Both the position numbers and the translations under genes were made by a program. This document shows positions 1,756 to 36,179 of a stretch of DNA of 64,000 bases, one piece after another (position 1 is the first letter of the stretch; each line of letters opens with the position of its first letter). This stretch comes from Bilabrum cf. latius (Eukaryota). A model generated the notes under the pieces. That model was not told the origin of the DNA, made no database searches, and saw nothing but the letters and a program-made list of their open reading frames with translations. The stretch lies in contig OZ237763.1 of NCBI GenBank assembly GCA_965178125.1, positions 806,001 to 870,000 on the forward strand, in the 5' to 3' direction.

Positions 1756-4700
1756 TTACTTCTTTTTCCCCTTCCCCTTCCCTTTCCCTTTCCCGCCAGC
1801 CCCACCCGCTGCACTCGTATCCGCCTGCAGCCCAGCATCCGCCCCTGGAGGCGCCTCCCCTGCCTGCAGATAGAAGATCCAGGGGGGCAGCCCCGCCCCC
1901 TCTCGCCCAGTAGCCCGAACCAACAGCTTACTGCTGGCCTCAGCCCGCCCCGCCCGCTGTGCCTCCTCGGCTCTCTCCGAGCAGCTCACCTCGATCCCCG
2001 AGGACTCCCTGGGCCCCAGCGAGAGGATGGCATCGTCCACGGCGAACAGGGGCGAGTCCAGCTCCAGAGAGAAGGACGCGTCCACAGAAAAGGGGGAGCG
2101 GAAAGGCACAGACACGGACCCCCCAGGCACCACGAAGAGCGGCCCCACCGGGCGGGGCGGCTCGCCGGTTCCCACCAGAGGCACCCGCACAGTCTCCCGG
2201 GGTACCTGTCCGCCGGACACCCGCAGCACCAGGGTCGCATGGGCCGGGCCGAGCCGAAAGGGGTAGAAAGACACGGGCACAGCGGCGGAGGCATCGCCCA
2301 GTGCGCCGACTGCCGCCCTGCCCTCTGGCACCGGCCTGGCCCCGAACTCGAGGGGCAGCTCCAGCGAGTCTCCGCCCTCGTCCCCGGCCCCCTCACCCAG
2401 CAAGAAGGCGTCTGCGTCGAGTCCTTCCACGCTGGCGAGCAACTTGAGCGAGCCAGAGGTGCCCGGGCCCACGTCTGGCCCCGCGGACCCCCGTATGTCC
2501 GCGGGGTGCAGGGCCCTGGCCCTGGCCCCCAGCGAGGCCTTGAGCTGGAGGGGTTTCTCCGAGGCAGGCACGGAGGCGAGCAGCTTGAGCACGTACCTGA
2601 AGCGCCCTAGCTGAGGGGATACAAGCACCATCTCAGTGTCCTGGGACTGCTCCCCGCCAGAGCCCGAGCTGGCCCCGTCCACGGCCGCGCCCTCAGCCCC
2701 GGCCCCGGCGGCAGCAGAGGCGCCCGCAGAGTCCGGCCGCAGGTGCAGTGGCGTGAACGTGACTCGGAATGGAATCTCGGCCTCGGAAGACGCAGCCCCA
2801 CCCGCTGCACCAGAGCCGGATACTCCCGCCCCCGCCCCCGCGCCGGCCAGCTGCTCGATCCTCACGAAGGGGTTCTCGCAGGTGACCTCGCTGAACTGCA
2901 CCTCCTCCTGGCCCTGGGCCTGCCCCATGCCCGCCAAAGGGTTGGGCACGGAGACGACCCTGGAGGCAGACTGCCGCAGCGCGGCACGCAGCCGCACCAC
3001 GCCCTGTGCCCCCGCCGGGCCGGTCCTGAGCAGCACCGGCTGTTCCACTACCTCGCCGCAGTCGTCGCCCGCCGTCTCGCAGACGAACCGCACCGAGAAG
3101 CCCAGCTCGCCCTCAAGGTGGTTCATCGCAGTCACCCGTACCTTGCGCACAGCCCCTGCCGACACTTCCACCGTGCGCGGGCAGTTGACAGTGGCAGTGG
3201 CAGGCAGGTCCTGCGGGCCCACCTGCACGCGGAACCTTCTCTGTCCCCTTGCCCAGTTGCTCAGAGGCACCATCACGGAGCACTGCGCCTTGGCCTGCGC
3301 CTCTGCCTCCAGTGCCGGCAGGGGCGCGGGCGGCCCGGCGGTGCCTCTCAGCGCCCTGGTCATGCCCCCCCCGTCCGGCAGCGCCACGAACAGCTCACCC
3401 TCGTGGAATGGAGGCCGGTGGGACGTGAGCGATCCCTCCACGGGGGGGAACAGGGAGGAGGAGGAGGAAGAGGCAGAGCCCTGGGCAGCAGCGGCGTCCT
3501 CCTTGCCCCTCCCCTTGCCCTTGGCTTTGCCTTTGCCTTTGTCTTTGCCCTTGCCGCCCTTGCCCTGGTCCTCCTGCTGCTCCTCCCCCTCTCCACCGGC
3601 AGGCACCGCCGTCTGGCTCAGGGGAGCGTACTCCACCTCAAGCTCGGGGACCTCCCCTGGCCGGGCCCTCACTTCGGCAGGTACCCTCCAGTGTGACGAG
3701 CTCACGGAGGGCCGGTACACCTGCGGCTCATCCGTCTCGTTCGCTGGCAGCGGAACCGTGAACTTGAACGGTTCGCCGCGCACGGATGCATTGCACTGCA
3801 GCACGTTCGCGTCGCTGGCGCCACCCTCCGCCTCGCCCGCTCCTCCCGCGGCTGCTCCACCAGCACCTCCCGCGGCAGGCCTGGGCACCGCGGTGGCCTG
3901 CAGCCGGATCCCCAACGGGTCGCAAGGAGTGCCGTCGGCCTCCTCAATCTGCACGTAACTCCCCGACTGCAGCTCCTCCTCGCCATCGGGGCCCAGCCCG
4001 CCCTCCCCCACAGGGGCTGCGCAGGTGAAGGCCAGCGGCTGCTCCTGACCCGGCCGCAGCGCCCCCTCCGGCGGAGAGCACGCAAACACACCGCCGAGAC
4101 CCTCCACGTCAACTCGGAATCGAATGGCCACGTCACCCCTGTTCCGCAGAGCCACCACCCGCCTCGCGGCAGACCCCCGCACCACCCGCCCGAAGCGCAC
4201 GTCCTCGTCAGTCACGTCCACCTCCACGCCCTCAGCACGGGCAGCCACCGTCAGGAGCGGCCTGCAGTCGCCCGAGGGCTCGCCCGCCTCAGCGCCGATG
4301 CCGCCGATAGACGACTGTGCCCCTGGCGAGGACGGCTGGCTGAAGCCTACTCCCATGCCTCTCCCTCCTTCGTCCTGGTCCTCGTCCTCGTCTCCGTCGT
4401 GGCCCAACACCCGGGCGAACAGGGGGGCAGAGAACGCACCCGCGCGCTGCTCGGGCCGGAAGTCGATCTGCACGTCCGCTGCCTGGCCCCTCCGCAGGGT
4501 GAGAAGCTCGGGCTCCCAGGCGACCCCCTGGGACCGCAAGCGGGGCGCCCCCCCGAGCGTGCCGTCCACCAGCCGGACCGACACTGTGGCCCGCCCGTGG
4601 TTGATCACCTGCACGCGGCGGCTGGCGCTGCCCCCGGCGCGCACTCCCGAGAACCGCACCCTCCGCTGGGAAGGATCCGCGAACTCGAGGCGCAGGGGCT

Positions 4701-7700
4701 CTGCAGAGGCCTCCAGCGGGATGGCGGGTCCTGCCGCGCGCCCGCCCACAGAGAGCAGGAGCCTGGCGCTGGCCGCCCCTGCCTCCCTGGGCACGTAAGA
4801 CACGGGCACCTCCACGATCTCCCCGGGACCCACCTCCACAGAGGAGAGGGGCAGCCGGAAGGGCAGGCCACCTCCTGGCAATCCTTCTGGCCCGCCCTCC
4901 GGCCCGGCGATGGCGAGGTCCACGGCCAGCGTGCGGTCCTCCTCCTCGCTGCCCAGCCGCAGCACCTGCGTGTGGCGCCTGGGGGCGGCGGACACCGACC
5001 GAGGCAGCACGCAGGTGCCCCAGTGCAGCGCCCGCGCGTGGGGCACCAGCCTGGGCACGCTTGTTCCCCCGGATAGAGGCACCATGTACGTGCTGCCCCC
5101 AGCCACCTCCAGCCGCAGCTGCAGGTCGGCAGCGTCCAGATCCACGGCCCCGGCCTCGGGCCCTTGGCCTCCGTGCACCGCCGGTGGGGGTGCAAACCTG
5201 ACCTTCACTCTAGCCGTCTCGCCCGCACCCACGGCGCCCCTGTCAGGCTCCACAGACACCGCCCCCAGGGCGAGGGACAGGATGCGCCCGATCGCCGCCC
5301 CGCTGAGACCCGATAGGCGGCCTCCTCCTCCCGACTGGCGGCCCCCACCTCCTCGCCCCCTCCGCTGAATGGTATCCAGCAGCTCCCGCGCGCCCCCCGG
5401 CGCCGCATCGAAGAGCACGACCTCCCCCCCGGGCCCCACCGTGGCCAGCCTGGCCTCGAAATGCAGAGACTGGGCCCCCTCGTTCCTCAGCTCCAGCTCC
5501 CTTGTTCCCTCGTCCCCGCCCTCCACCGCCCCCAGGCGCACATCCTCCGCCACCACGCCCCCCGTCGCGCTCTCGCCCAGGCGCCGGGCTGCCTCATGCC
5601 CCGCAGAAACGCCCAGGGCCGCCTGAGCAGCGCCCACGTCCACCGGCAGCAGCTCCGCATCGGGGTCTCCCTGCCCCGTGCCGCGCAGCACCACCCGCTC
5701 CTTGATCGCGAATGCGTCTCCCTTCACGTTAAGGTGCAGCGGGGTCACCCGCCGGCCCACCACGCACCGCAGCGTGGCGTTTGCCAGGCCGGCAGCCCTC
5801 GGCTGGAACCCCACGTCCACCTGCACGGACCCCCTCGCAGGGATGCTGCCCCGCCACGGGGACACGCTGATGCAACCGAACGGACCCACCCGCAGCACGG
5901 CCCCGCCCTGCTGCCCCTGTCCATGCCCCCCCTATCCTGCGGTAGCGGCAAGGCTCCTCGCTGCCCTTAGGCCCCCTCCCCCCGAGCCTCCCCCCGCCCC
6001 CTCCCCGCCCCCGGACTGACCCGGGGCCTCTATCCTGAAGGGCAGCGGCACGTCCTCGCCGTTGCGGATCTCCACGGTGCGTGACGAGTGCGCCCCTGCG
6101 AGCAGCCTGCCAAACCTGACGGAGGGCGGGAGAACAGCCACTGCTGGTTCCCTGGCGCGGCCCACCACCAGCACGGTGATCTCCAGCCGCTTCGAGGGCA
6201 CGGAAAACCGGAAGAACTACTCGCAGGCCTCCCCAATGGCATCGGGCTTAAAGGCGAACTGCAGCTCGATCTTCTGCCCCCCCGCCAGCTGGCCCCGCTG
6301 CGGGCCAGCCGACAGCGCCCCGGACCTCTGCCCCACCGGCTCAAGGGCGAACTGCCACCCCTCCGCGGATGGATTCAGCAGCTGGCAGACATGCCGCACT
6401 CCCGCCGCCCTGCCTATGCCCACGCTGTCCAAGACAAGCACCCGCGTGGACGCATCGATCGGAGTCCCGGGCAGCCCGTCCGCTCCCGGCAGCCCAGGAG
6501 GTCTCGAGGCCAGGTACGCGCTCGCCTGCGTGCTGTCCTGCGAGGGCAGCTCCAGGTGTGCCACTGGGCGCTGCCCCCTGCCCGCTGCCCGCACCACGCA
6601 TCCCGACGGCACGGCCGGGGCCACGGAGGGCAGCGATCCTGCGGGTGCGGGCAGCGAGGCAGCCCCGGGAGGCAGCCTGCCTGCCCCCAGAGCCAGCTGC
6701 AGATCAGCGGCCTCGTGGGCAGGGTACAGCGTCTGCACGCGGGGAGGGGCGCGGCTCCCGCCCTATTCATCTCCCTCTCCTTCGGACACTGTGCTCTTGG
6801 ACTCCTGCTCCCTTTTGCTCTCCTCCAGGCGGGAGGTCCCAGCCCCCGTGGACGGGGCCGCATCGGACGAGGCCAACGAGTCCCCTGCCCCAGCCCATGC
6901 CCCCGATCCTGACCCTAGTCCGGCATCAGCCCCGCCCACCTCCAGCCGCTGCAGGTCAATCTCGGCCACCACGTCGAACTCATAGTCGTCTGCCTCCAAG
7001 GGGGTGAAGCAAAGGGAGCCAGCAGAAGGCACCTCGGGGCCGGCCTTCGACTGCCCTCCTGCGCCTGCATCGTCCTCGTCCTCCCCCGACTTGCTCTCGG
7101 CTTTGCCTTTTCCCTTCCCTTTCCCCTTGTCCTTGCCCTTGTCCTTGCCTTTTGACTTGCCCTTATCGCCTGCCCCCGATGCATCCTCCTCGCCCTGCCG
7201 CTTGGGCTGCACCGCGGGCAGCAGCACGCCCACAGCGGGCCGGATCGCGAACGGGGACTGCGTCACGTCTGTCAGCTGCCGCGGCAGGGCGCCCGTCCGC
7301 CGCACCGTCTCCGCCGCTGTCCTCGCTCGCTGCCTTGACACGCCGGTGGGGATGTATCGGAATCGCACCGGCAGCGCCAGCCTGCCCCCCGAGGTCCCCT
7401 GCAGCGGTGCCACCCTAGTCTGGTACATGGGCGTGGGCCGGAAGACCGCGCGGGCCGGCCCCAGGCTCGGCTGAATGCGGTCCGCCTGCGCGCTGACGAG
7501 AAGCATGCGGGCCTGAGGCGCACTGGCTGCCTCCAACAGGGACCCCTCCTCCTCGGGCTACCCATCGCCCGCGCTCTCTCCCGCGGTACCGTTGGCCAGC
7601 ACCTCCCGCGGGTCGAAGGGTGCAGCCAACTGCACCGCGCCCTTCCCATCCCCGTCCTGCTGGGCCGCCAGCCACCTAGGCGCCCACAGCGGCTCGGGGC

Positions 7701-9328
7701 GCCCCTCCACCACCCGCAGCACCCCGCCCGATGAAGCGCCACTGCTCCTCGCCCTCCCCTCCTCCCACACACGCACCCTAGGCGGCACGCGGCAGCCGGT
7801 GCCTTCCTGTTCCTCAGCGGCAGCGGCGGCGCTCTTGGTCGCTGCATCCCTGGCCTGCTACTCCTCAGCGGCGGGGGCACCTCCCTCGGCGGCTGCCAGG
7901 GGCACCGCCCTCACGTTGGAGACGTCCGCGCTGCTCCACTGCACGCTGGGCTCATGCCAGGGGCCTGCCGGAGCCTCCGGACTGGCTGCTGCATCGCCGG
8001 CGCCTCCACTCGCAGACTTGACCTTGCCACCCTTGTCCTTGCCCTTCCCTTTCCCCTTATCCTTGCCCTTGCCGCCTTTGTCTTTCCCCTTGCCCCCTTT
8101 TTCCTTCCCCTTCCCCTTCCCCTTGTCCTTGCCCTTGCCTCCTGCGCCCTCCGCGCCCCCCTCACCGCCCCCCTCCTCATCCCCCCAACCAGATTGCGGC
8201 CCGTCGTCTCCCTCGGGCAGCACGCCCCCCGCGGGCTGACCCAGCCCGCCCACCGCCGCCCGCAGTGCCGCCTCCGCCGTCTCCTCCGAGGCCCCCTCGG
8301 CCGACCCCTCCTCACCAACGAAGGCCCGCACCAGGGCAGGGTGGTACGAGACGGGCACCCACACGAGTGGAAGCGGCCGACGCACCAGTCGCAAAGGATC
8401 CGCCACGCGAAGAACAAGCCGGACACGCCTGGAGGCACCCGCTGGCAGGTGGAACATGGCCGGGGTGGCGCGCACTGCACGGTGGGCGGGCCAAGCGCAC
8501 CGCATGGGGTAGCTGGCGGCATTGCGGACCACTACATCCGCCCGGGCTTCCACGCACGGCGGGCTGTTCCCCTCCGCGGCCAGCGATGCATCTGACAGCT
8601 CCGTCTCCCATTCCGCCCAGGTGCGTCGCCCCCCGTTGGGACCGCCCTCCTCGTCCTGCTCCGTCCCGCCGGCCGCAGTGGCAGCCGCAACCGATCTCCC
8701 ATCCGCGTCCCGGAGACCGTCGGGAGCGGCCTGCTGGCCCGCCCCCTGCGGTCCTGGGCCCAGCAGGACTGTGCCAAAGTCCAGCACGCCCTGGCTCGAG
8801 TCCTAGTCCTGGGCCTCGCTCCCTGCCTCGGTCCCAGTGTTAGCCCGAGCCCCCGCTGCACCTGCAGCAGCGGCGCACGCAGGCCGCGGCAAATCTTCCA
8901 GCCGCAGAGGTGGGGCCACTGCCCGCCCGCGCAGCACCACCCGATCGGACGCAAAGGGGTTGTGCGCCACGACGACTCGGAATCGCAAAGCTGTTCCCTG
9001 GAACGGCCCGACGCTGGTAGTGTCCTCGCCGCCGCCCTTGCCACCCTTGTCCTTGCCCTTGGCTTTCCCCTTGTCCTTGCCCTTTGCTTTCCCCTTGTCC
9101 TTGCCCTTTGCCCCGGACGCCCCGTCACCGCCTGCCTCCGCGTCGGCCCTGCTCCTGGCCCTCTGCAACCGCCCCTGCTCGGCCCAGAAGGCAGCCTCCT
9201 CCTCCGAGGGCGAGTAGGAGCACTGCACGCGGCGGCTCTCGCCCGGCTGCAGCGTCAGCGACTGCCCCGCGAGGGGAAACGCGAGCTGTGACGAGTGGAC
9301 CTGCGTCGATGGCCCGTACAGGGGAGGC

Positions 9329-9365
<37 letters not shown>

Positions 9366-10209
9366 TAGCCCCGCCCCCCTCACCCTCACTGCCCTCAGCC
9401 CCCTCATCGCCCTGCCTGTCGCCGCCACCCGGCGCACCAGCGCCTGCGCGGACACGCTCCAGGACGAAAGAAGCGGTGGCCGGGACATCTCCGTCGTTCC
9501 TGAGCTCCAGCTCGCGCGCCGCAGTGCGCTGCACCTCAAGACCCCCGAAGTCCACCAGCACCGCGCCCTCGGGATCCCTGCCGCCCAACCCACTCCGAGG
9601 GGCCAGCACGGACACCGTGGGCAGCGTGCCGTCTCCCTGGCACCTGAACTGCAGGGCCGCAGTCCCCGGGCTCGGGCCACCGCCCTGCACCAGCGCGCGC
9701 ACCCGGCAGCCGTAGGAGCGGACCGCGCGCGGGTGGAACGACACGGTGAAGTACCGGCTCTCGAACGGAGGCACTCGCAGCTCCTCACAGTCCAGTGTGA
9801 ACGCTTCCGCTGGCGTGGGAACTCCGTCCGCCGCGGCCTCACTGCCCGCCCCAGCGTCTCCGCCCGCGCCGTCGGGCGTCAGCTCCAGCCTGACGGAAGC
9901 CGGCACTTTGCCCGTGTTCGTGATCCTGACGCGCTCCTCCACGCCGCTGCTACTAACTGACGTGTAAATCACCTTTCCAAACGACAGCGTTCGCTCCCTT
10001 ACTCCAAACACGGCCCGCTGCTGCGCATCAGATCCCCCCCCACCGCTGGCCTGTCGAGCAGACTCAGAATCTGCAATCGATGGGACCACTGCTTGCTCCT
10101 CAAAAATTTGCTCCCAGTATGAGATGACCTTGGCCATACGGGCTGGCGTCGTCGGCAACTTCGACCCACCGCTCTTGTCTTGCCTCGGAGTGCCCGTCGT
10201 CGACGACAT
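1756..10209 (-). CDS. HYDIN: Hydin-like central-pair protein, C-terminal portion (~2,800 aa, repeated ASH/Ig-like domains)
   Basis: One frame from ATG 10209 to TAA 1756, broken only by TAG at 8803, 7858, 7558, 6763, 6217 and 5932. Hydin-like motifs include IFEEQAVV, LSFGKV..ITNTGKVPA, VPPFESRYFTVSFHP, QGDGTLPTV, FGRVVRGS..LRNRGDV and a terminal PWIFYLQ. Confidence 0.8.
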
Positions 10210-11434: not shown

Positions 11435-13396
11435 ATGGCTAGACATGGTCGAATACGCCGCAACTTCCCTACGCGTTTATCAAACGATGTATATATTAAA
11501 TTTTTTATTGTGAGTGTAGCAGCTTTATCGATAGGGTGGTTGCTGCTGCACGCGACCAGCACAATGGACAGCAATGCCTCCGGAGCTTAGAGCATGCTCC
11601 AAGGCGACCTTGCTTCCGACCGAGCACAGCTCATAAGGCAATCGTGCGATGGTGTTGCCGTGTGGGCTCATGCCTTGCAGCCCGATACTGTGCGGCACCT
11701 CGACTGCGCTCCGAAGGCCATGGTTGAATACGCCGTCTTGCACCGATCCCTCCGGCACGAATCCAGCGCACGGACAATAACCTATTTCTGCCAAGAGTGG
11801 TGCGGTGGTCTCGGAGATCGCTTGAAGGGGATCGTGACTGCCTACCTGCTTGGATTACTGAGCGGAAGAGTCGTGCTTCTGGACCAAAGACTGCCAACGT
11901 ACGCGGAGGACATTTTCTTGCCAGGCAGTGCTGCGTGGGCGCACGGTGTCGACTGGAGGCTGACAAAACGCGAACGAGTTAGTCGGGCTGGCCATGGGCT
12001 CACCATCGTGGATGAGCTGCCGATGGGGAGCGATGCGACGCTGGAGCGGCAGTGCTCCGCGGTGTGGGCCTGGTGGAGCACCATCGCTAGCACTTCACCG
12101 GAGCACCAGCACGTTGTCATCCGCGTGAATCAGCACTGGGATGCCGTGCTCGCGCGCTGCCTGTCGCGGGACCAGCTGCCTGTGGGCAACGCGAGCCTCC
12201 GGCCGCTCGCCTGGATGGCCCGGGCCCAAGCTACCCTCAGCAGCAGCGGCACACCTCCCGCAGGCGGCACAGACGTCCTGGATCCGCCGCCAGGAGGCCA
12301 CCACCAGTCCAATCAGCAGCAGTAGCAGCTGAGCATGGACAGCCGGCTGCATCTGCTCTCGTTGCTGAAGCAGGGCTGTCGGCGGCCGGGCGCGGCCAAC
12401 AGCACAAACGTGGACTCGGAGTCGTCCGCCCCTGCCACGGACAGCAACCCCGACGTGTGGGCCGCGGCCGTGCACGCCATGCTGGTTCCTCGCCCCGAGG
12501 TTGCCGCCCTGCTGTGGGGCGGGCAGCTGCAGCGATTGGCGGACTCTGCAGAGGGGCGGGGTCAGGAAGGTGCTAGTGGGGGCGAGACTGCCTCGTCAAG
12601 GGCCGTGGTGGGAAGGCGGGAAGGTATTTCGCAGGGGGCGTATTCGCTCGCTGGCTGTGGGGCCCCCCCGCGCCCGTGGCTGGGAGTCCACATCCGGCTG
12701 GGTTCCCAGATTGACCCGCTGGTCGGGGAGAGGCAAGGGCAGGACGTGCTCCGGTCCATGCCTCACGCGGTGAGGGCGGCAGCGGCAGCGGCGGGGTGGC
12801 ATGTGCCGCGGCTCGGGAGCTGGGCCAAAGGGAAGAGGGAGGGCGATGGGGGTGAGGGTGAGGGTGAGGGATCTGCACCGTCACACCTACCAGCCAAGGA
12901 GAGCCAGTCTGTGTCGGTCTACGTGGCGGCCGACACGTTCTCGAGGGCAGCGGCGTCCACTCGTCACATCTAGGAGCTCACGGGGGCGAGGACGTGCAGC
13001 CTCAATGTGACGGGCCGGCAGCAGGGCATGTACCATGTGGACCGCACGAAGGTGCTGCGGGGCCAGGAGGGGGGCACCGGTGGAGGCCCGGGAGCTGGAC
13101 AAGGACAAGGACAAGGACAAGGATAGGGACAGGGGGCGGACGCGCTTAGCAAGGAGATGCACATCCGGGAGCAGCGCACGATGCTGGCCGAGTGGATCGC
13201 GCTGTCCAGCTGCGATGCCCTGTTGGTCACGGGGTCTGGGTTCGCCAGGACTGCCGCAGCCGCTGGTTTCATCCGCAGGTCGTGGGAGGCACTGCACGAT
13301 GGTGCTCTGCGCGAGTCCGGGTGCCCCGCCACTGTGCGGCCCCAGGCGAGGCCAGAGGGGGCCCCGGCCGGGTACCGGCTGCCGCCTTACAGATGA
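11435..13396 (+). CDS. Type II membrane fucosyltransferase-like glycosyltransferase (alpha-1,2/1,6-FucT motif family)
   Basis: ATG 11435, basic N-tail, then a TM segment (FFIVSVAALSIGWLLL). Motifs GGLGDRLKGIVTAYLLGLLSGR, LGVHIRLG, VYVAADT and AEWIALSSCDALLVTGSGFARTAA. In-frame TAG at 11588, 12323, 12971 and 13124; ends TGA. Confidence 0.8.
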
Positions 13397-21322: not shown

Positions 21323-21487
21323 GCTGTACGTTTTGCACTTGGTGGCGTGGCACAGCAGCGCATGGTTTCTCCAGCGGAGGTCCACTCGTCATCGTGCAAA
21401 GATACCCGGCAGTAGAATCATGCACAGACGTTCCGAGATGTAGCTTTGGCGATGAAAATGCCCGCGAATTGACTTAACCAAACGAAC

Positions 21488-24400
21488 ATGGACGGGGACT
21501 TTGCCGGTAGTGGCCTCCAAGACCGCCACGGATCCCAGTACGCTGGCATGCAACAGCAAGGTGAAGACCAGGCTTGGGAGCGACACTACGACAAAGCATA
21601 GCGTCACTATTATTGGATTAATACTGTGACTGGTGACTCATAGTGGGAAGCTGCTCCGATGGAAGCGATGGTTGTGGTGGATCCACCAGCGAGCGAGGCT
21701 GCCGTGGTTTCACCAGCAGTCTCGTAGGTTGATAGTGGTACCGCCACCGACCATTCACGTCTAGTATAGGAAAGTACTGCAGAGAAGGCGATGGGTATGG
21801 TGGATCCACCAGCAAGCGAGGCTGCTGCGGCTTCATCGGTAGTCTCGTGCGTTGGCACTAGCGGAACGAGCTCATTGCGCTGGCAAGCAGTGTGGTCCAA
21901 GTCGAAGCAAAAAGTGTATTATTTTAATCGCGAGACTTAGAAAACGTCTTGGGAGCCTCCAGATGAACCGTTCGAGCCGCTGCCCGACAATACGGCTGCA
22001 CCTGGAGCCACCAGGTCAGCTGCCCTTCCTGCTGCAGTGGGCACGACTCCCAGCCGAGCGACTGCCACTGCCAGCGGCACCAAGAAGCTATATACTCCTC
22101 CGACAGGACAAGTCGCTGCAGGGGTGCACTCTGGCCCGACCGGAGCGGGGAGCCGCGAAACTCCCGGCCAAGGAGGTGCCGTTGCAGACTCACCTCACGC
22201 TGGATCTGCGGCAGGCACCCGCAGGGGCAGTGGTCCAGCGCCATCGCCGATAGACCCCCACCGCATGGCTGAACAGCTAGCAGACCGACTGCAGCAGCAG
22301 CGGGAGGAGCTGCAGCGTGCCTTCAGCGAGGAGAGGAGGAGAGCGGAGGAGGCAGCCCAGGCTGGGCTGGCCGAAATCAGGGAGGAGCTGGCGGCCGCGA
22401 GACAGGCGGCCGCAGAGGCAGCGGGGCAGGCGGCAGAGGCAGCACAGAGGGAGCGGGCGAGAGCCGACGCGGAGATCGAGCGGGCGGCGAGGGCGGGGGA
22501 GCAGGCGGCTGCGGCCAGGGAGCAGGCGGCTGCAGCGGCGGCTCGGTTGGAGGCGCAGGACTAGGCGCATGAGCGGGTGCAGAGGGAGAGACAGGATGGG
22601 GCTGCCGCGCTGCGTGAGGTGCAGCAGCTGGCTGACTAGAGGTAGACTGCCCTGGAGGGGGCTCGGAGGCACGTGGAGAGGGCAGCGTGGGGGGCATCGG
22701 CCGCGACGGGCGAGCTGAGGGCGGCGGTTCGTGCCGCCCGCAGCGTGCCTGCCGCTGGCAGTGGCACAGGGAGTGGGGAGCAGGACGGCAGGGCCGGTGA
22801 GGAGAAGGCCACTGGGCACGGGGAGGGAGAGGGGAAGCAGGACGAGGGCGTAGACAAAGACAAAGACGAGGCAGGGGGCGGTGAAGGGGCTGGGCTCGCA
22901 TCGGCAGCCCAGCTTCTGGAGCGCCGTGTGGAGTCTCTGGGGAAGCAGGCTGTGGAAGTGCAGGAAGCAGCAGCGGCTGCTGCAGCGAGGGCCCGACATG
23001 CCATTGACGCGGCCCGATAGGCAGAATCCAGTGCAAAGGAGGCCTCGGCCAGACTGGTGCAGGAGGAGGAGGCGAGGGCGGCGGCGGAGGGGCGAGCCGA
23101 GCAGGCAGCCAGGGAGGCACGGGAGGTTCGATAGGCGCTGCAGGCCGCCGAAGAGGCCCACAGAGCTGCTGCAGATAAGTTGAAGGCTAAATCTGAGGCA
23201 GATGCAGCGGCGAAGGTATAGGTAGCGCAAGGCTCCCACGACAGTCGCCCCCTTCCCCCTGGCCCACCCATTGGAAGCGACGAACTTCGCCGCGCGCGGG
23301 AGGAGGGCAGGAGGGAGGGTGCGGCCGAGGTGGAGGCCAGGCTGAGTGCCAGGGTGGAGGAGGCGCGGCGGGAGGCCACGGAGGAGGCGGCATCACTCAA
23401 GGCCTAGACATAGGCCAAGGCCTAGGCATCTGCGGATGCAGCCAGGCAGGGTCTTTAGGAGGAGGTGCGATCGCTGCGGGCCAGGCTGGACGAGGCAGAG
23501 GCAGAGGCCACCAGGGCGCAGGAGACCAGCGAGCGGCAGCAGCGCCGCGCAGAGGCCGCAGAGCAGAGGGCAGACTCGGCGCGGGAGGAGGCCGAGAAGG
23601 CACGAGAGGCTAAGACCAGCGCGTTGCAGGCCGCCGAGGCCGCCTACAGAGCGGAGCTGAAGCGTGCGCTGGATGAGGCCGCGGCTCGATTTCAAGAGCA
23701 GAAGCAGGCGGCAGTGGGCGCAGCAGAAGCCGCGGAGAGGCAGCGACTACAGGCGCGCGTGGCAGAGGTAGAGCAGGCCGCCGCTGCCCGCTGCCAGGCC
23801 GCGGCAGAGGAAGCCGCTGCCGCCGAGCGCAAGAAGGGTGAGGCACAGGCAGCGGCACTGCGCGCCGATGCAGAGAGCGCCCGGCAGCAGGCCCGGCGGG
23901 AGGCTACACTGCGGCGCGCGGCTCACAACAAGGTGCTGGAACTGCAGGGGAACATCCGGGTGTTCGCGCGCATTCGGCCCGTGCTGGAGGTGGATCGAAG
24001 GGCAGGCGAGGCTCAGGCACGAGATGTGACGAGCGTGCAGGACGACGGGAAGGTGGAGCTTCGGTTCAGCAAGCTGGAGGCGCTGGGGGATGGGGGGGCG
24101 GGAGCGGGGCTCGGTGTGTCTTCGGGAGCCGCCAGTGCCAGCGAAGAGAGGCATGCCTTCGCCTTTGACCGCGCCTTCGGAGCTGACAGCAGACAGGAGG
24201 AAGTCTGGGCGGAAGTGGCACCCATGGTGCAGTCGGTGGCGGACGGGTACAACGGCTGTATCTTCGCCTATGGGCAGACGGGCTCCGGGAAGACGCACAC
24301 GATGGAGGGAGATCTCGAGGACCCGGGAGTCAACCGAAGGGCGCTGCAGATGCTCGTGGATGTGGTGGTCAAAGAGGATCTGGGGGAGGTCGAGTAGGTG

Positions 24401-25273
24401 GACAAGGTTGCAGCGGACACCCCGAGGAGCGACAAGAGCGGGGGCAGCGCTGGTGCTTCGACGCCCACTTCTTTGCCCATCGTCAGGCCTCAGCTGCTGC
24501 TGAGCGTGCTGGAGATCCACAATGAGAAGGTGCGAGACCTACTGGCGCCAAGGGGCCGCAAGGGGGCGGATTCGCTGGACTTGCGGGCCTCAAGAGATGG
24601 GGGCGTGAGGGCAGAGGGACTGACTCACGTGCGGGTCAGGAGCCAGAAGGAGGCCCAGGCGCTGCTGCTTCAGGCGGGCAGGCACAGGAGCGTGGGTGGG
24701 CACGACATGAACGCGCACTCGAGCCGGTCCCACCTAGTGGTGACCGCCACGCTGACGGTGCCTCGGCCCGGCGGCAAGGTGACGAGCTCCCGGCTGCACC
24801 TGGTCGACCTCGCGGGGTCGGAGAGGGTGCGCAAGACGGGGGCTGGCGGGGCTCGGCTCAAGGAGGCTCAGCACATCAACAAGAGCCTAAGCGCGCTGGG
24901 GAATGTGGTGGAGGCGCTGGCCTCGAGGCAGAGAGCGGCGGGGAGCGGCGGGTCTGCCTCGGGCGGGGGCGGGCACGTGCCGTTCCGGAACAGCAAGCTG
25001 ACGCACCTTCTGCAAGGGGCCCTCTCGGGGAACAGCAAGGTGCTCATGTTCGTGAACGCGTCGCCCAGCCTGTACAACGCGTCCGAGACGCTCTCGTCCC
25101 TCAAATTCGCGCTGCGGTGCAGGGCAGTCAGGCTTGGGGTGGCCCGGCGAGGTGTGCAGGACAAGTGGCAGGCAGAGGCCGAGATGCTGAGGAGGAGGGT
25201 GCGGGAGCTGGAGAGGCAGCTGGCGGCGGCTGGGGATGGGGCTGGGGCTGGGGCTAGGACGGGCGGGACTTGA
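21488..25273 (+). CDS. Kinesin-14 (C-terminal motor) with two N-terminal WW domains and a long coiled coil, ~1,260 aa
   Basis: Neck HNKVLELQGNIRVFARIRP, P-loop AYGQTGSGKT, NAHSSRSH, LVDLAGSER, HVPFRNSKLT. WW1 is WERHYDKA*RHYYWINTVTGDS*WE and WW2 is WQAVWSKSKQKVYYFNRET*KTSWEPP. One frame with 16 TAGs; ends TGA. Confidence 0.9.
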
Positions 25274-25400: not shown

Positions 25401-28400
25401 TCACGACCTCGCCCCTGACGAAGGCGCTTCCCCCCTGCCCCGTCTCTCCTGCTACACCGCGCGCAGGTGCCTGCCCAGCCCCGCCGCAGCATCCACGACC
25501 GGCCCATCCCTGGCCAATGAGCCGCCCATGGACTCGCCGGGCCTGCCCTATGGCGGCGGCCTGCCCTCCTCCCCAAGCACCCTCCGCTGGAGCTCTGCCA
25601 CGAAGAGAGCTCTGTCCTGCGGCTCCACGAAGGGAAGCATGGCCGCAGCAAGGGCGGGGCGGGGGGACAGAGCAGCTGCCGCGGTCTGCCAGAGGGCCTG
25701 CTGGGCTCCGTCCACAGCCTGGGGCCCCGCCCCCTCTGCGATCAACTGGTTCAGCCGGCGGGCAGCTGCTTCGACCCCCCTTGCCTGCGGGCTGGCCTCA
25801 CCAAAGGTCTGGCGTAGAGCACGCCAGAAGGTCACGGCATCCGTTGGAGTCAGCTGGGTCTGCTCGGCCGACTCTTGCTGCAAGCGAGCCATGCGGGCCT
25901 CTGCACGGGTGGGCCTGCGCGGGTGCGGCGGGTGGTGATGATGGTGGTGGCTCTACCCCTTCGCATCTGCCTGCTTGCCCTGCTGCCCCGCCGCCCCGCT
26001 CGCCCTGCCCAGCGGCCCCATCACCGGTGCGGGCTCCTCAGCAGTGGGAGCCAGCGCCAGTGCTTGAGCCACCACGGCTTCTGCTTGCCGGTCCGCTGCT
26101 TTGAGCACCGCAGCGCGATACCTCTCGGGGTCCTCGCCCTCAGGTGGCACGGCAGGGCCCAGTCTATCCCTGCCCCCGCTGCTGCTGGCCTTGCCACTGG
26201 ACGCACCGGCCCCAGTCCTGCCCGAGGCCCCGCTCCGCGCACGGGGATACGTGTGCTGGGCTGAGCCCGCCCCGGATGAGGCTCGAGAGGATGCCTGTTT
26301 CTGCACCGATCCAGCCGACTTGCCCCCTGCCAGCGCCACAGTGAACGGATCTGCAGCGGGTCCCTCGGCCCCCTTCACCGGCCGGCTGAACGCGATCACC
26401 CCCGCATCCGTCTCAGTCACCTTCCTGAGCTCCTCCAGCGCGCCCCACTAGCCCACGATGCCCCGCAGCAGCGCGGCCCTCTCTTGGACCCCTTTGCTGC
26501 CCGTGCTCCTTGCGGCCTTCTCCAGGGTATCCACGGGATCAACCGCCACTCGCACGGCGGGAGGCATGGCCGGGTAGGTCCCTGCCTTGGTGCCCATGGC
26601 CTGCCTGGCCACGCGCCGCCAGAACTCCTGCTCCCGCGCAGAGTTGCGCCCGTCCCCAACCCTTGGAGGCGGTGCTGCCAGCCCGGGCCCGTCGTGCGTC
26701 GCTGCATCCGTTCCATTGGCAGCAGGCAGCCCCGCTGGTATGGGCCAGGGCTCTCCTCCCGCACGAGCAGGCAGCAGCAGCCCAGTGCCACTCCCCGGCG
26801 GGGCACAGCCTTCCTCCACGAAGACCCCAGTGGAGGCCAGCCCGCGCCTGAGCTGCTCCTTGGCCTGCTCTGGAGACAGCCCATTCAGCTCCAGTTCAAG
26901 GTCTTGCTGAGGCTCCTCCTCCTCCTGCTCCTGACCCCCGCTACCCTCGCCCCCTTCCTCCTCCTCCGCATCGGCCACAGGGTCCGCTGCTCCCTCAGGT
27001 GGGGCAGGCACCACGGAGGCCAGCGCTGCCATGAGAGCAGAGGACCCGCGGGACTGACCCTCCTGCCCATCCTCCTCCATGAGCTCCTGACCCGCCCGCA
27101 GCACCTTGCGGCTGCCTGCCTTGCCTCCGCCCCTGCCCCTGCTCCTGCTCTTGCCCCCATCGCGGCCCGCCAAGACGCCCCGCCTTCGAAGCGCCCGACC
27201 GGCCTCCGCGTGAAATCGGAAGGATTCGGAGCCGTTGTGCGCCCCGCCCTGCATCTGTAGCGGGGGCGGGCAGCAGTCGAGGCACGTCCAGAACGGCTGC
27301 ATCCTAGCCAGCTCGAAGCGCACGTAGGACCTGCGAGTGCGGTACGTCTCCACATCCACGCGGAAGCAGCGCCCGCACACAGACCTCCTGCACGCGCTGA
27401 CAGAGCACCAGAGCAGCGCCCCTGTCTCGAACACGTCCAGGCACAGCGAGCACAGCGCCTGTCCCCGGCCCACGAACCAGGCCCCTGGCACCTTGCTGCT
27501 CAGCGACTGCATCGCAACTGCAGCGGCACCCTGCGCGCGAGCGGCGCGGGTGGCGGCACGTGCGCTGCGCCTGCGGCCCGGGCCTACGTGCATCTCCCCC
27601 GCGGCTGCCTCTGCATCCGCCTCGATGCGGGCCGTCTCGGCCTCTGCTCGCGCTCTCGCCGCTAGCTCCGTGGCCTCTCTGGCGGCCTGGTCCACTGGGC
27701 CCAGCCGCTGCTGCCTCCACCTCTTGCGCGCGTAGAAGAGGTGCACCACGTCCGTAGTGGGGCGGCCCAGCAGCGCAGCGACACGGTGAAACTCCTTGCC
27801 GTACTGTGTGACGAGCACTGCGAAGAGGTCGAGCTCGCCTTGCGACCATGGCCTGGGGGCGGGGCCCTCCCCCTCGTCCTCCTAGGGGTCCAGGGGGACA
27901 CCCCCGCGCTCGGGGTGGGGGCGGCGGTCAGCGCCCGGGGACCGCAGGGAGGCGGGCACGGCCGGGTCAGGCAGCCACGTGGCCTGGTACTCCCGCCCCA
28001 CCCTCGTGCGGCGGTACTTGTCCTCGTCCTCGCCAGCCGCTCGCATGCGCAGCTGCTGGGACGTGTCCGCGGCCGAGCCGGCTGGTGCTGCGGCTGGGGC
28101 TGGAGCTGCGGCTGGGGCTGGAGCTGGGGCTGGTGCTGGTGATGGTGCTGGTGCTTGGGTGGTTGCAGCTGTGCCAGGGTCTGCTGCATCCGGTCCGGCC
28201 TGATCGTCGCTAGCCATGGGGGCAGAGGAGGCAGAGGCAGCAGACTCTGCGTGACCTGGCGCGGGGTCGCCCTCTCCGTCCTCCATGGCAGCCTGTGCAG
28301 ATGGCATCTCACCCTCCCCCTCCTTGCCCTCGTTCGCTGGACCATCTGAACCATCCTCCTTGCCCCCGTTCGCTGGACCATCTGAACCATCCTCCTTGCC

Positions 28401-29639
28401 CTCGCCCCCACTATCCTCACCGCTTGAGTCCTCCAGCAAATCCCGGAGCATGGGCTCCACGTGATCCCGGAGCCCAGGCACCCTCAGCAGCCCCTCTGCC
28501 TGACTCGCCCACCCCGTCACGTTGTCAGTGACAGGGGGCAGCGGGACCGCCAGCACGTCCGACTGGCGCCCCGCCACAGCCTGGGTGAGGGCAGCAGCGG
28601 CTCGCAGGTGCGTGTGGTCCGCCGAAGCCATGATGCGGGCTGCGTCCTCCTCGGGGATGGGCCGCACGCTGAGCAGCCTGGGCTCGATGGTCCCAGCGCA
28701 GCCCACCGACGGCAGCTCGGGTAGGCTCGGGGGCACCACCGGGGGCTCGCTCTCATCTGGTGGGGGATCCTCAGAGCGAAATTCTTGCGGGACGTCTTCA
28801 GCTAGCAACGCCTGTAGGGGCACAAGAGCCCGGCGGTGGCGCCGTGGCAGCACCACGGTGCCCTGAGGCCCGGTAAAGAATCCGACAGCGGCAGCGCCAG
28901 CCAAGTGCGGCATCTTGCTTTCGCTGTCATCGCTACCGCTGGCCGTGGCTTTGCTCCCATGTGTGTTGGGTTTGGCTGCAGGCGTGACCACGGCAAGCTT
29001 CACAGGTCCGACAACTGTCGATAGCGGGATGCAATCTCGTTCGTACGACAGAACGACGCTAGTTCGCGCTCGCTGCTTCTTAGCAGATCCATTCTTGCCA
29101 GCTCCTGATTTCTGATCTTTGGCAGGGAGCGCTAGAATTTCTGTCGCCTCGTCGGTTGCTTTACCCTCTAGGTCAACGAGCGTCTGCTCCGCCTCGAGCA
29201 CCGCCCGGACAAAATCTGCTGCCTCCCCGGACACCTTATTTCCCAGCGATGCGGAATACGCGGATGCCGACTCTTGCTGCGATTTTGGCTACAATAGACC
29301 TCCGCGAACAGCTGAATGTGCCTGTACTGCAAGAATCCCGAGCGCTTCCTCAGTAGTAGGAAGCCATCGGACCTTGGCTGCCATGACTTCCCCGCGTTGC
29401 ACAAGGGATTCAATGAGCGCAAATGAGGTCGGTCGTTTGCTTCCTTCGCTTGATTGGGTTCGAACGCTCGCTGCAACGGCTCCATCGGGGCCAGGCACGC
29501 CGCCCTTGCTATCGATCCTGCGGACCTCGATGGCATCCCCGACCGCTATCAACGTAGACCCAGCTTGAGCTGCCCAATACTCGATCTCACTGCGGCGGCC
29601 TCTTGCTAGTCGAACCTCCCCTGCCCATTCAAACGCCAT
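25401..29639 (-). CDS. Chromatin protein with BAH-like, ELM2-like, SANT/Myb and PHD/ADD-like zinc finger regions
   Basis: IAVGDAIEV..FALIESL..AKVRWL (BAH-like), TRVGREYQA (ELM2-like), WSQGELDLFAVLVTQYGKEFHRVA (SANT), CSLC..LLWC..C..VCGRC..WTCLDC. TAGs at 29289, 27882, 26448, 25953, 25548 and 25452; TGA 25401. The start is uncertain because the frame is also open to ATG 29849. Confidence 0.7.
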
Positions 29640-29958
29640 CCTGGTGTCCCACTACTCGCTTTGCACGAGCCCACACCCGCCTGGTGCTAGTGTGTAGTTG
29701 TGCGGCTGACCGATTGAGTCGGGCTCTAGTTGCCTAGCGTTACCTCTGCAAAAGCGCTACAAGTAGTTCAAGCAGCAACGGCTCGACAGACACCCCTGGG
29801 AAACCCCCGTCCCTCCCAAGCTTTCAAGGTGCTGTGCACCTTTCCTCATCCAGTCACCTCGTTCCCTCGGTTGTAACCATTATTCGAAGATGAAGATTAA
29901 TCATGTCCTTCATCACCCCAAAGTGAGCCCCTATCCCAAACGAATCTGGACAGATCTG

Positions 29959-31940: not shown

Positions 31941-34900
31941 TTACGTGCGGGCTCTCTTCTTGGCTCGCCCAGCGGCCTTGGCGCCCTTCTTCGACCTGGA
32001 GGCAGCCCGGGGCCGCTTGCTGCCGGGCTCAGCAGCCTCACCTTCTTCCTCCTCTTCCCCCTCCTCGTCCTGCTCCTCCTCCTCGTCATCCTCCTGATCC
32101 CCAGCCGCCTCAGAGGTGGCCTTGCCCTTCTTCCGTCCTCCACTCTTGCCAGCGGCCGCCTTGCCCTTGCCCTTCGCCTTGCCCTTCTCCTTGTTCTACG
32201 ATCCCTTGGGCCTCCCCTTGCGCTGCTTGGTGGGTTTGTACTCCTCCCCCCGCAACTCGCAGTTCTCCTTCTCTACCAACGCGATCAGCTGGTCACACCT
32301 CCGCCTAAGCTCCTGCGTGGTGCGGCTCTTGATGAACCAGTCGAACCGAAACATGGGCGCCCGGCGCACTTCCTGCTGCATGCGGTCCCACCGACCGTAC
32401 CCGAGGGCGTTCAGCATGCACAGCAAGAAGCGGTCTTCCTCCTCGTTGAAGCCCTTCGTGGGCTTGCCCGAGCCCCCGTATGGCACCTGCAGCTGCAGAA
32501 AGGGGTTCCCGTATCTGTGTACCTTCCAGGCCACCTCCCTCTCCACGTCGTCCCTCCTCTGGATCTTGCCCTCGCCCTTGGCGATCTTCACCTCAAGCTT
32601 CTTCCAGTCCTCCAGCTCCACGCAGCGACCCCCCATAAAGTCTCGCTTGGCCGGATCCCACTCGCCCCAGAACGCCGTGAAGTACCGCGCCACCTCACTG
32701 GGCTCCTTGCCGGTGGCCGTTGAAACCTCGGCGATGATGGCCCGACGCGCCCGCCTCCCGTGCCTCTCGCACGCGGACATGAAGGCACGGAAGTCGCGCC
32801 TGGTCCACGACCTGAAGCCCTCGGCCAGCAGCTTCTCCTTCTCTTCCTCCTCATCCTTCGGCAGCACCAGCTTCTCCAGCGCAGCGCGCAGACGGGCCGC
32901 TCCGACGCCCTTGGCCGCCCTCTCTGCCTTCCTGCCCTCTAAGTCAGCCTCGACCGAGTCGTTGATGTCCTCGTCGATGCGCTGCCGGCCCCTCCTCTTC
33001 TTGAGCAGCTTGGCCTCGAGGGTCTTGAGGTCGGACTCATCGCCCTCGCCCTCGTCCTCATCCTCATCACCGTCTGCGTCACCGTCCTCGTCACCGTCCT
33101 CCTCGTCCTCGTCTTCGTCTGCCGCAGCCTTCATCGGCTCGCTAGCACCGGCACCAGATGCAGCCGGCGCAGGTGCAGCAACACTGCTGCTCGAGGCAGC
33201 CGCGCCTGACGATGCTGCAGAGCTGGCGGTTGCCACATCGCTGTCAGCAGCGGCGCTCGAGGCCGACGCATCTCCCTGGCCCCCAGGCCCCTGCCTCTCC
33301 AGCTCTTCCGGGTCCATGGTCATGACCTCGAGGTCACCGTCTTGCAGCGCAGCGGTGTTTGCCGCCCGACCCATGATTACGATCTGGCCTGAAGAGGGTT
33401 CGATGCCCTGCGCCACCATCTTGGCGCGCACCTCGGCGAGCTTGGCCGCCCTCCGCTCGTTCATCTGGCGGTCCTTGCGCCTTCGAGCCCAACGGCGGTC
33501 CATCTTGTTCTCCTCCTGCTCCACCTCCTTGAGCTCTGCCTTGATCTCGCGGCGGGCCAGCAGCAGGTCGTTCTGCTTCTCCACGATCTCCATGATGCGC
33601 TTCCGGTTGAAGAACTGGAAATCCATCATCTGCGGGGGCTTGTACAGTCGAGGTTTCCCGCGGGGGGCAGTAGGCTTGCCGTCCGCTCCTGCTCCGCTTC
33701 CCCCGTGCATCACGTCAGAGTAGTACTGGTCAATATCGTAGTTGCGCTTCCGCTCGCGCTGGGGCAGGTTGATCAGCATGCCCACGTCCATGCCCGCTGC
33801 GGCCAGCCCGCGCTTGCCTCTGCCCCTGCCCGGCTTTGGCTTCTGGTCCGCAAAGTCCTACCCGCCCCAGATGTAGATGCTCATGTCGCCCTTGCTGTCA
33901 TCCATGGAGTAATTCTGCAGCGTGTGCTGCATGTCCCTCTAGATCTTTGCCTTGTCCTCCGAGGTGCGCTCCTCCCCCTTGCGCAGGATCGCGTCGATGT
34001 CCTCGTCCGTGATGCCGTCAGAGCCACCCGACCGGAAGATCTCGTCCGCGCCGAATCGCACCATGTTGGCCAGCTCCCCGCGGGACAGACCCTTCTCCTT
34101 CTGCGCGAGGCGGCCCTGCTGGATGACCAGTGCGTCCAGGTACAGCTTGCGCTCGGCTCGCTCCACAATCTTCTCCTCCACCGTCTGCTCCGTCACCAGC
34201 CGGAACACCCTCACCACGTTCTTCTGCCCGATTCTGTGCGCCCTGTCCATGGCTTGCAGGTCCATCTGAGGGTTCCAGTCGCTGTCGTAGATGATGACGG
34301 TGTCGGCCGAGGCGAGGTTGATCCCTAGTCCGCCGGCCCTCGTGGACAGCAGGAAGATGAACTTGTCGCTGTCTGGAGCGTTGAACCCCTCAATCATTTT
34401 GTCGCGGTCAAGGCCGTGGGTGTTGCCGTCGATCCGGCAGTAGTTGTAGCCCACGTGCCTGCAGTAGTCCTCGAAAATGTCCAGCATCCTGGTCATCTGC
34501 GAGAAGAGCAGCACCCTGTGCTTGCCAGCCTTGAGCTTGACCAGGAGGCGGTGCAGAAGGTTCATCTTGCCGCTGTTCTCCCACAGGTGGGGGCCTTCCT
34601 CGAAGGGAGGCCCCGGCTCGGCGCCGTCGAAGAGGTACGGGTGGTTGCAGCACTTCCTCAGCTGCATGAGGATGTTGAGCAGCCGCACCTTGTCGGCACC
34701 GCCCACCTGGTTCAGCGAGGCAGCGTCCTTGGACAGCAGCTTGCGGTACCACTCGTTCTGCATCTTGGTGAGGCCCACGAACAGCTTGGTTTCGATCTTG
34801 GGCGGCAGCTCTTTGGCCACGTCCTTCTTGACCCTCCTGAGCATGAAAGGCTTGAGAATCGCGTGCAGCTTGCCCACGGCGTTCTTCTCGACGGCCTGCT

Positions 34901-36179
34901 TGCTGCCGTCCCCGCCCGCAAACCAGTGGTCGAAGTCCTCCGCGCTGGAGAACACGTCAGGCAGCAGGAAGTTTAGCAGGGCCCAGAGCTCGTGCAAGTT
35001 GTTCTGCAAGGGTGTGCCCGTGAGCAGCAGCCGGTGCCCGCTATCTAGCTGCCTGACCTCCCTGGACAGGGCCGAGTTCTCGTTCTTGATGCGGTGAGCC
35101 TCGTCGATCACAATGTACTGCCAGGAAAACTTCCGCAGGGCCGCCCTCTCGATGATGACCACCTCATATGACGTCACCACCACGTCATACTGCAACGACA
35201 TGAGCTCTTCCTTGACCAGTCGCTACCGCTCCTCCTTGGGCCCCTGCAGGCGCAGCACCTTGAAGGAGGGGCACCAGCGGTTGAACTCCTTGACCCAGTT
35301 GCCCAACGTGGACTTCGGTACGATCACCAGATGAGGGCCCGAAATGGCCCGAGCCTCCTTTAGGTAGGCCAGCAGGCTGATGCTCTGCATGGTCTTGCCC
35401 AGCCCCATCTCGTCTGCCAAGATCCCGCTGATGTTGCAGTCGTGCAGGTTGACCAGCCAGTTGAGCCCCTCAAGCTGGTAGTCGCGCATGGACCCGCCCA
35501 CAAGGTTGTTCGGCTGCTTCTCAATGCGAACCGACTACCTCCCTCCCCCTAGACTCTCCGCCAGCAGCTCCTCGTCCTCCTCCGCTTCCGTCATGCGGTG
35601 CTTCCGGCCCCCAGAAGCGGCCCCTCCCGCGGCTGCATGCGCCTCCGCCTGCGCCGCCAGCTTTGCCTTCCCGCTCATGCCTTTGGGCTTGCGGCCCCGC
35701 TTCTTCTTGCCTGTTCCAGCCTGTGCCCCCGCGCCCCCCGCGCCCCCGAGCCCTGAGCTCCCGGTGACGAAATGCGAGAAGACCTCCACCTGCTGCGTGA
35801 GGAAGTCCAGCCGGGCCGCGTTCTTGGCCTCACGGTCCTCATCTATGGCGGCCTACTGCTGCTCTTTCACAGCCACCAGCCGCTGCTTCTGAGCCTCGCG
35901 AAGCTGCTTCTGGCGTTCCATCTCTTCCTTCACCAGCCGCCTCCGCTCCTCTGCCCGGGCGCGGCGCGGGGACGTAGCCCCGGCCTACCCCGACGATGCA
36001 GACGAGGAGGAAGAAGATGACGACGCGGCCTCACCGTCGTTGTCGTCATCAGCAACGTCAAGCTTGACACCAAACTTTGGAGCATCTGCCAATTCGTCAG
36101 CAGCACTCGAATCGTCTCCTGCTGCGGCCTCGGCAATCAATGCCATCTCGTCATCGTCTGCGGTGGCGAAGCGAGGCAT
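31941..36179 (-). CDS. ISWI: ISWI/SNF2-family chromatin remodelling ATPase (helicase, HAND-SANT-SLIDE), ~1,410 aa
   Basis: [59 protein letters not shown] and [26 protein letters not shown]. TAGs at 35985, 35853, 35535, 35223, 33939, 33858 and 32196; ends TAA 31941. Confidence 0.95.

Follow-up and report, generated by a model that had tools for sequence, protein, structure and literature searches.

UAG as a glutamine codon in a nuclear stretch from Bilabrum cf. latius and in its relatives

In the 64,000-nucleotide stretch of contig OZ237763.1 (assembly GCA_965178125.1, positions 806,001 to 870,000 of the forward strand) from Bilabrum cf. latius, hereafter the window, the codon TAG occurs in frame within the glutamine (Gln) repeats of one open reading frame (ORF) and within conserved coding genes. 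We show that UAG is a sense codon equivalent to CAG and CAA here and in at least two relatives, and that UAA and UGA are not sense codons. The nuclear genome very probably reads UAG as Gln throughout its genes, with UAA and UGA staying terminators, which is a code of the NCBI table 15 type. All coordinates refer to the window, its first letter being position 1.

Open frames, orthologous codons and glutamine repeats

ORFs of at least 300 amino acids called with the standard code summed to 18,057 amino acids (longest 1392), and the sum doubled to 36,577 amino acids (longest 2907) when TAG was treated as sense. Treating TAA as sense left the sum nearly unchanged (19,462 amino acids, longest 1398), and with TGA as sense many extra frames opened, as is expected for GC-rich DNA, the longest ORF still having 1392 amino acids; the G+C content of the window is 64%. 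Taken from the first ATG, 15 ORFs comprise 17,087 codons including 89 TAG, 612 CAG and 99 CAA in frame; TAA and TGA occur zero times in frame, which is partly so by construction, but ORFs bounded in this way nevertheless span full-length homologs. At least one in-frame TAG was found in 13 of the 15 ORFs, and TAG is a minor codon that makes up 89 of 800 Gln codons (11%). The ORFs terminate with TGA (13) or TAA (2) and none needs TAG as a stop. A reading of both UAA and UAG as Gln (NCBI table 6) was ruled out on the basis of the zero in-frame TAA, the two genes ending in TAA and the lack of an ORF gain with TAA as sense.

Pfam searches with the TAG-containing ORFs identified SNF2 (7e-99) together with SLIDE and HAND (ISWI), SMC (4e-75), kinesin (2e-91) and ABC_ATPase (3e-118). 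BBS7, CFAP65, calpain and PH-domain genes with TAG were likewise supported by Pfam, and a URO-D gene without TAG is also present; an exact look-up of the window's UROD protein in the protein collection did not find it. The Pfam domains span in-frame TAGs, so TAG sits inside conserved coding genes.

Relatives of the window were sought with the protein sequences. A library search using the first 1200 residues of the calpain-domain protein returned short fragments from relatives (70-97% identical), which had evidently been cut at TAGs by gene calling with the standard code. One of these, P0244 (96% identical, 116 amino acids), reads ...RDGRWQGSVVD... with Gln at the window TAG 39006-39008, a codon that faces Gln in two relatives, and ends just before the window TAG 39285; another, P0274 (97% identical), breaks off at precisely the position of CAG 41727 in the window. 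More distant calpain fragments were located on metagenome contigs, and the aligned fragments then retrieved the contigs L001 and L002. L001 (12,736 bp) is colinear with 32215-43951 of the window at 67-77% DNA identity and has the same gene order (ISWI, spacer, calpain, ABC_ATPase). Its long ORFs require TAG as sense, namely calpain with 1587 codons and a TGA end and ISWI with 1391 codons, truncated by the contig edge, and neither of the two contains an in-frame TAA. L002, an independent metagenome contig, is identical to L001 over 8,403 bp, TAGs included. The TGA terminators of calpain and ABC_ATPase stand at homologous places in the window and L001. No relative was found in a search of metagenome contigs with the PH-domain protein (501 pattern matches) or in a search of prokaryote genome contigs with ABC_ATPase (24 pattern matches), and the N-terminal 830 residues of the kinesin compared with shorter proteins gave no match at E <= 0.001 among 8000 candidates, this search being swamped by low-complexity words.

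Protein alignments between the window and L001 (ISWI, 81% identity; calpain, 68%; ABC_ATPase C-terminus, 71%) contain 37 columns in which one or both of the two sequences have TAG. Two of these are TAG on both sides, 19 TAG-versus-sense columns were kept because 8 or more of the 12 flanking residues agreed and no gap was near, and 16 were set aside (partners proline, serine, aspartate, valine, valine, glutamate, alanine, glycine, Gln, histidine and six gaps). In the 19 kept columns the partner of TAG was Gln 13 times (CAG 11, CAA 2), glutamate twice, and serine, valine, leucine and histidine once each, with no lysine. Window TAGs face Gln in 4 of 6 columns (ISWI 133, 343 and 798; calpain 127) and L001 TAGs in 9 of 13. 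The ISWI TAGs at 35853-35855, 35223-35225 and 33858-33860 correspond to CAA, CAG and CAG in L001; the CAA stands opposite the first of them, within ALKEQQQAAIEED.

Each candidate amino acid was scored with substitution frequencies taken from the same kind of column. The resulting log10 likelihoods over the 19 columns were -14.2 for Gln, -34.2 for serine, -35.2 for histidine, -42.8 for lysine, -43.4 for glutamate, -60.8 for tyrosine, -64.7 for tryptophan and -66.0 for leucine, which makes Gln 10^20 times likelier than the next candidate, serine. UAG as leucine, serine, glutamate or lysine was rejected, these residues being the partner in 1, 1, 2 and 0 of the 19 columns and their likelihoods lower by at least 20 orders of magnitude. 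Ordinary Gln codons stay Gln in 81% of such columns, with which 13 of 19 is compatible (p = 0.13). In addition, L001 has TAGs at ISWI 662, 712 and 879, columns in which 115, 115 and 114, respectively, of the 116 distant homologs carry Gln. The preliminary description, made from the window alone, had proposed Gln on the strength of Gln runs and had named dominance of TAG columns by glutamate, leucine, lysine or tyrosine as the outcome that would speak against it; the ortholog columns together with the Gln of P0244 at 39006 arrive at Gln independently of such runs, and all four of those alternatives are rejected.

L001 is less GC-rich than the window (G+C 56% vs 64%; 0.52-0.61 vs 0.74-0.84 at third codon positions) and has more TAGs in ISWI (10 vs 7) and in calpain (12 vs 5), which fits TAG as an AT-richer synonym of CAG. 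A further relative, from the sequencing run X8, is ~91% identical to the window (over 19981-22705, for instance, it differs by 242 letters and 23 gaps). In its sequence over 11471-11737, TAG 11588 is retained and the frame stays free of stops amid 34 changed codons (20 non-synonymous, 14 synonymous); this comparison of CAG and TAG covers TAG 11588 alone, as 40 of 1373 differences were listed and the glycine-glutamine (GQ) stretch around 13124 was passed over as repetitive.

The Gln repeats that drew attention to TAG lie in the following ORF:

11435..13396, plus strand: ORF of 653 codons with a TGA end and four in-frame TAGs (11588, 12323, 12971, 13124)

The open frame as such spans 11426-13396 on the plus strand. 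In it, TAG 12323-12325 stands within AAT CAG CAG CAG TAG CAG (12311-12328, translated NQQQ*Q) and TAG 13124-13126 within (GGA CAA)4 GGA TAG GGA CAG (13097-13132, translated GQGQGQGQG*GQ). Both sites are in the frame of this ORF exactly as first described, and the two further sites of similar context, in ISWI (35853-35855, minus strand, KEQQ*A) and in SMC4 (51778-51780, AAQ*A), are confirmed as well. The TAGs 12323 and 13124 are read as Gln because the genome-wide code assigns TAG so. The name fucosyltransferase, which had been attached to the ORF, is not established: the match to Pfam XG_FTase (E 2.5e-4) reaches 20.2 bits against a curated cut-off of 23.4, and a search of solved structures returned low-complexity matches only. 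The product is possibly a fucosyltransferase-like glycosyltransferase. Just upstream of the ORF lies tRNA-Arg(CCT) (11273-11345, minus strand), the sole tRNA gene of the window.

Genes and repeats of the window

The other genes considered here are the following:

1756..10209, minus strand: CFAP65/hydin-like ciliary protein, 6 in-frame TAGs after the first ATG, TAA end
21488..25273, plus strand: kinesin-14-like protein with WW domains, 16 in-frame TAGs
25401..29849, minus strand: protein without known family, 8 in-frame TAGs
31941..36179, minus strand: ISWI-type chromatin remodeller, 7 in-frame TAGs, TAA end, identified by Pfam and homologs
38631..43286, plus strand: calpain-domain protein, 5 in-frame TAGs, TGA end
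43407..45296, minus strand: ABC_ATPase/MRB1590-type protein, 2 in-frame TAGs after the first ATG, TGA end kept in L001
46028..48709, minus strand: protein without known family, 14 in-frame TAGs, six of them at one place in a 17-residue tandem repeat
48973..53133, plus strand: SMC4, 5 in-frame TAGs including 51778-51780
53231..57835, minus strand: PH-domain protein, 17 in-frame TAGs
58319..61174, plus strand: BBS7, 3 in-frame TAGs

The tandem repeat of the ORF 46028-48709 occupies 47572-47826 on the minus strand and consists of six copies of a 17-residue unit (VQAAADAPPSRPGDGA followed by TAG), with TAG placed identically in each. Several lysine-glycine repeats (KGKGKDKGKGK...) occur between the Ig-like domains of the CFAP65/hydin-like protein (1756-10209, minus strand), and a long run coding for (Gly-Ala)n is found at 31051-31246 within the ORF 29710-31884. 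In BBS7, homology to the bovine protein begins at ORF residue 15, corresponding to bovine residue 57, and no ATG precedes residue 96; an upstream exon probably encodes the first ~56 residues, or else a start other than ATG is used (58319-58604).

Contigs of the sequencing runs X5 and X6 cover 11442-12833 (record 9 of X5) and 21434-24064 (records 13 and 14 of X5) with 0 other letters, their TAGs, including 12323, being unchanged. They also skip two GT...AG intervals on the minus strand, 19581-19675 (95 bases) and 19427-19530 (104 bases), both within a gene that is read from the minus strand at around 18.8-19.9 kb, so that spliceosomal introns, at least a few, do occur in this organism. With two GT-AG joints and ends near gene ends, these contigs look like transcripts, to which we give little weight as the kind of run is a guess and X5 is marked as probably DNA.

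Towards the end of the window, a 339-bp unit repeated four times (61724-63081) precedes 47 perfect copies of the telomere-type repeat TTAGGG (63083-63364), after which a separate 155-bp satellite of lower G+C content follows (63425-64000); a short (TAGGGT)6 is located at 61552-61587. The TTAGGG copies are either an interstitial telomere tract or a chromosome end that the assembly has fused to other sequence. A mechanically called ORF at 61688-63370 was rejected as a gene, its 45 apparent TAG codons coming from the TTAGGG repeat.

Evidence against the reading and competing explanations

The residues next to TAG were compared with those next to Gln codons. Gln was present at -1 or +1 for 11 of the 89 in-frame TAGs (12.4%), for 100 of the 711 CAG and CAA codons (14.1%) and for 1263 of the 16287 other residues (7.8%). 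TAG is indistinguishable in this respect from the Gln codons (p = 0.75), and against the non-Gln residues the one-sided Fisher test gave p = 0.084. TAG thus behaves like a Gln codon in its neighbour rate, yet the association by itself is suggestive and not significant: of the enrichment of TAG beside Gln that had been proposed, the direction held when checked within the window and the significance did not. A likelihood test was also run on the contexts of TAG, taken as the six residues that surround it (87 distinct contexts). Leucine ranked first (-3.6), Gln second (-5.1) and lysine tenth (-15.4), in a test that, calibrated on samples of equal size, placed lysine, glutamate, alanine and glycine first in 90-94% of the trials and Gln in 42%. 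The residues around TAG are accordingly unlike those around lysine, glutamate, alanine or glycine, with the caveat that lysine contexts are mostly KGKGK repeats, which TAG may avoid for other reasons.

Distant homologs were aligned for ISWI (116 sequences) and SMC4 (120 sequences), in which 8 TAG columns had enough occupancy. With profiles learned from the same alignments, these columns scored 2.34 for Gln, 1.72 for lysine, 0.92 for alanine, 0.18 for arginine and -0.41 for glutamate, and methionine, proline, valine, cysteine, tryptophan, leucine, isoleucine, tyrosine and phenylalanine all scored below -7. The distant-homolog columns reject leucine, tyrosine and tryptophan but cannot tell Gln from lysine. 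Single homologs of solved structure have glutamate at BBS7 407, histidine at BBS7 844, cysteine or serine at ABC_ATPase 432 and glutamate at hydin-like 1420, residues too few to count.

Several observations weigh against UAG being read as Gln throughout the genes. The partner is a residue other than Gln in 6 of the 19 well-aligned columns, and the window TAGs fall mostly in variable columns of the distant homologs (SMC4 1313, for instance, is lysine in 82, arginine in 30 and Gln in 2 of 120). The two TAGs of the Gln repeats, 12323 and 13124, have no ortholog column at all, and the Gln-run argument taken by itself is suggestive at p = 0.08. The tRNA scans of the 64-kb window, which found only tRNA-Arg(CCT), and of the 12.7-kb L001, which found none, revealed no tRNA with a CUA anticodon, and none of the sequencing runs is on record as RNA. 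Furthermore, a TAG lies within the last 16 codons before TGA in 4 of the 15 genes, with ~1.2 expected (binomial p = 0.027):

53095 (first base), plus strand: late TAG of SMC4, 11 codons before TGA
61136, plus strand: late TAG of BBS7, 11 codons before TGA
46078, minus strand: late TAG of the ORF 46028-48709, 15 codons before TGA
25454, minus strand: late TAG of the ORF 25401-29849, 16 codons before TGA

UAG might still terminate translation in some contexts because these late TAGs exceed the expectation, or the gene tails that carry them are simply unconstrained.

In the explanation that we favour, TAG would arise from CAG and revert to it by a single C/T transition, which would account for the TAGs inside CAG runs and GQ repeats. 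By analogy with other lineages in which UAG is Gln, a tRNA-Gln that has the anticodon CUA and receives its Gln from the ordinary glutaminyl-tRNA synthetase would decode UAG and not UAA, and eRF1 would be restricted to UAA and UGA and be blind to UAG. No eRF1 gene is located within the 64-kb window or L001.

An unlikely but best-surviving alternative is a dual meaning, in which UAG is Gln inside genes yet a stop near the 3' end of some mRNAs, as context-dependent stop/sense codes exist in some ciliates. In its favour are the excess of late TAGs 11-16 codons before the assumed TGA terminators and the finding that 71 of 120 SMC4 homologs stop short of the column of TAG 1387. The sample is small, however, poorly constrained C-terminal tails may just gather more TAGs, the TGA terminators of calpain and ABC_ATPase are kept between the window and L001, and no gene of the window requires TAG as a stop.

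Read-through without a dedicated tRNA, i.e., a near-cognate tRNA-Gln(CUG) acting on UAG together with an eRF1 that is weak on UAG, appears less likely still. It would insert Gln too, so that the ortholog evidence is compatible with it, and the absence of a suppressor tRNA from the scans of the window and L001 is in its favour. Genes with up to 17 TAGs would, however, need each of them to be read at ~100% to yield a full-length protein; the scans covered just 64 kb and 12.7 kb, and suppressor tRNA genes were found in two UAG-to-leucine ciliate genomes according to the excerpted text of PMC11687900.

We regard it as very improbable that the TAGs are altered before translation, by U-to-C RNA editing or splicing, or that they reflect pseudogenes or assembly errors. 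The lack of a run recorded as RNA leaves room for editing, but the TAGs lie within conserved domains codon-for-codon opposite Gln codons and hence are not intronic, the agreement of L001 with L002 over 8,403 bp extends to the TAGs, and the transcript-like X5 and X6 contigs (with the reservation made above on the kind of run) match TAG-bearing stretches without a differing letter. Scarcely credible, finally, is that UAG encodes another amino acid (lysine, glutamate, serine, leucine, tyrosine or tryptophan) and that the Gln contexts are coincidental: although distant homologs favour lysine at SMC4 1313 and glutamate at ISWI 798 (68 of 116), and other eukaryotes read UAG as leucine, serine or glutamate in the excerpted text of PMC11687900, ISWI 798 is CAG in L001 and in the 19 ortholog columns serine and all the rest fall far below Gln.

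Placement and comparison with known codes

The best named ISWI matches were stramenopiles (55-65% identity), not ciliates or metamonads, and the SMC4 matches were ~43% identical. In a 19-row tree of SMC4 the window came out beside the long-branched Thecamonas and animals beside oomycetes, and this tree is unreliable. The taxon is taken here to be a flagellated protist and probably a stramenopile.

Code 15 bacteriophages (PMC9523058, for example) also read TAG as Gln, in genomes that either bring a suppressor tRNA of their own or have none. The window is like them in that reading and unlike them in belonging to a eukaryotic chromosome, on which ISWI, SMC4, kinesin and BBS7 genes lie together with telomere-type repeats.

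Among nuclear codes, UAG alone is Gln and UAA a stop (table 15) in the fornicate Iotanema spirale and in the ciliates Hartmannula sinica, Trochilia petrani and Protocruzia tuzeti, as listed in the excerpted text of PMC11687900 and PMC5304391. As in these protists, UAG is here a sense codon that matches Gln in orthologs and UAA is not reassigned. The presence of at least one in-frame UAG in most genes, as in 13 of 15 ORFs here, is likewise shared, and so is the minority status of UAG among Gln codons, its share of 11% here comparing with 18.5% in H. sinica and 31.8% in T. petrani in the passages of PMC11687900 that were available. The window differs from the table 15 ciliates and Iotanema in its 64% G+C content, its paucity of introns, its flagellated organism and its TTAGGG repeats; it also differs in stop preference, TGA (13 of 15) over TAA (2 of 15) here vs UAA in the table 15 ciliates as far as the excerpted source describes them.

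Both UAA and UAG are Gln (table 6) in many ciliates, Ulvophyceae, Hexamita, Streblomastix strix and Amoeboaphelidium protococcarum, among the lineages named in the excerpt of PMC11687900. The code described here is like table 6 in that a stop of the UAA/UAG pair is read as Gln and unlike it in that TAA is never in frame and ends two genes. The same excerpt reports UAG as leucine in an uncultured rhizarian and in TARA phyllopharyngean ciliate genomes and as serine in Scotinosphaera, and UAG as glutamate with UAA as lysine in an uncultured ciliate (PMC11687900; PMC10553269). With these codes the window shares the uncoupling of the meanings of UAG and UAA; it differs in that leucine, serine and glutamate are rejected here by at least 20 orders of magnitude.

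In a full-text literature search, with subscription journals mostly beyond its reach, no report turned up of UAG being reassigned in the nuclear code of a stramenopile or of a similar flagellate rich in G+C. The code type itself is already known, and what is described here appears to be a table 15-type nuclear code in a lineage apparently not yet reported to have one. Tentatively, and with somewhat less than even confidence, we suggest that it represents the first case beyond ciliates and metamonads of a nuclear code with UAG as Gln, in a GC-rich, intron-poor flagellate nearest to stramenopiles, that it is old and clade-wide, and that UAG perhaps still terminates near some gene ends. The change would be old and clade-wide since relatives at ~96%, 91% and 70-77% identity share the code.

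Nuclear code changes are rare in eukaryotes, and split meanings of UAG and UAA are confined to a handful of lineages in the excerpted text of the 2024 survey (PMC11687900). A further independent UAG-to-Gln lineage would be a data point on the capture of UAG without UAA, and this one has a GC-rich genome, TGA as the main terminator and relatives at several distances. Standard gene callers cut the genes of this organism at every TAG, and its relatives are present in public protein collections only as fragments (P0242-P0244, P0274). As a consequence of this fragmentation, annotation, orthology and metagenome binning of the clade would be wrong unless table 15 is used.

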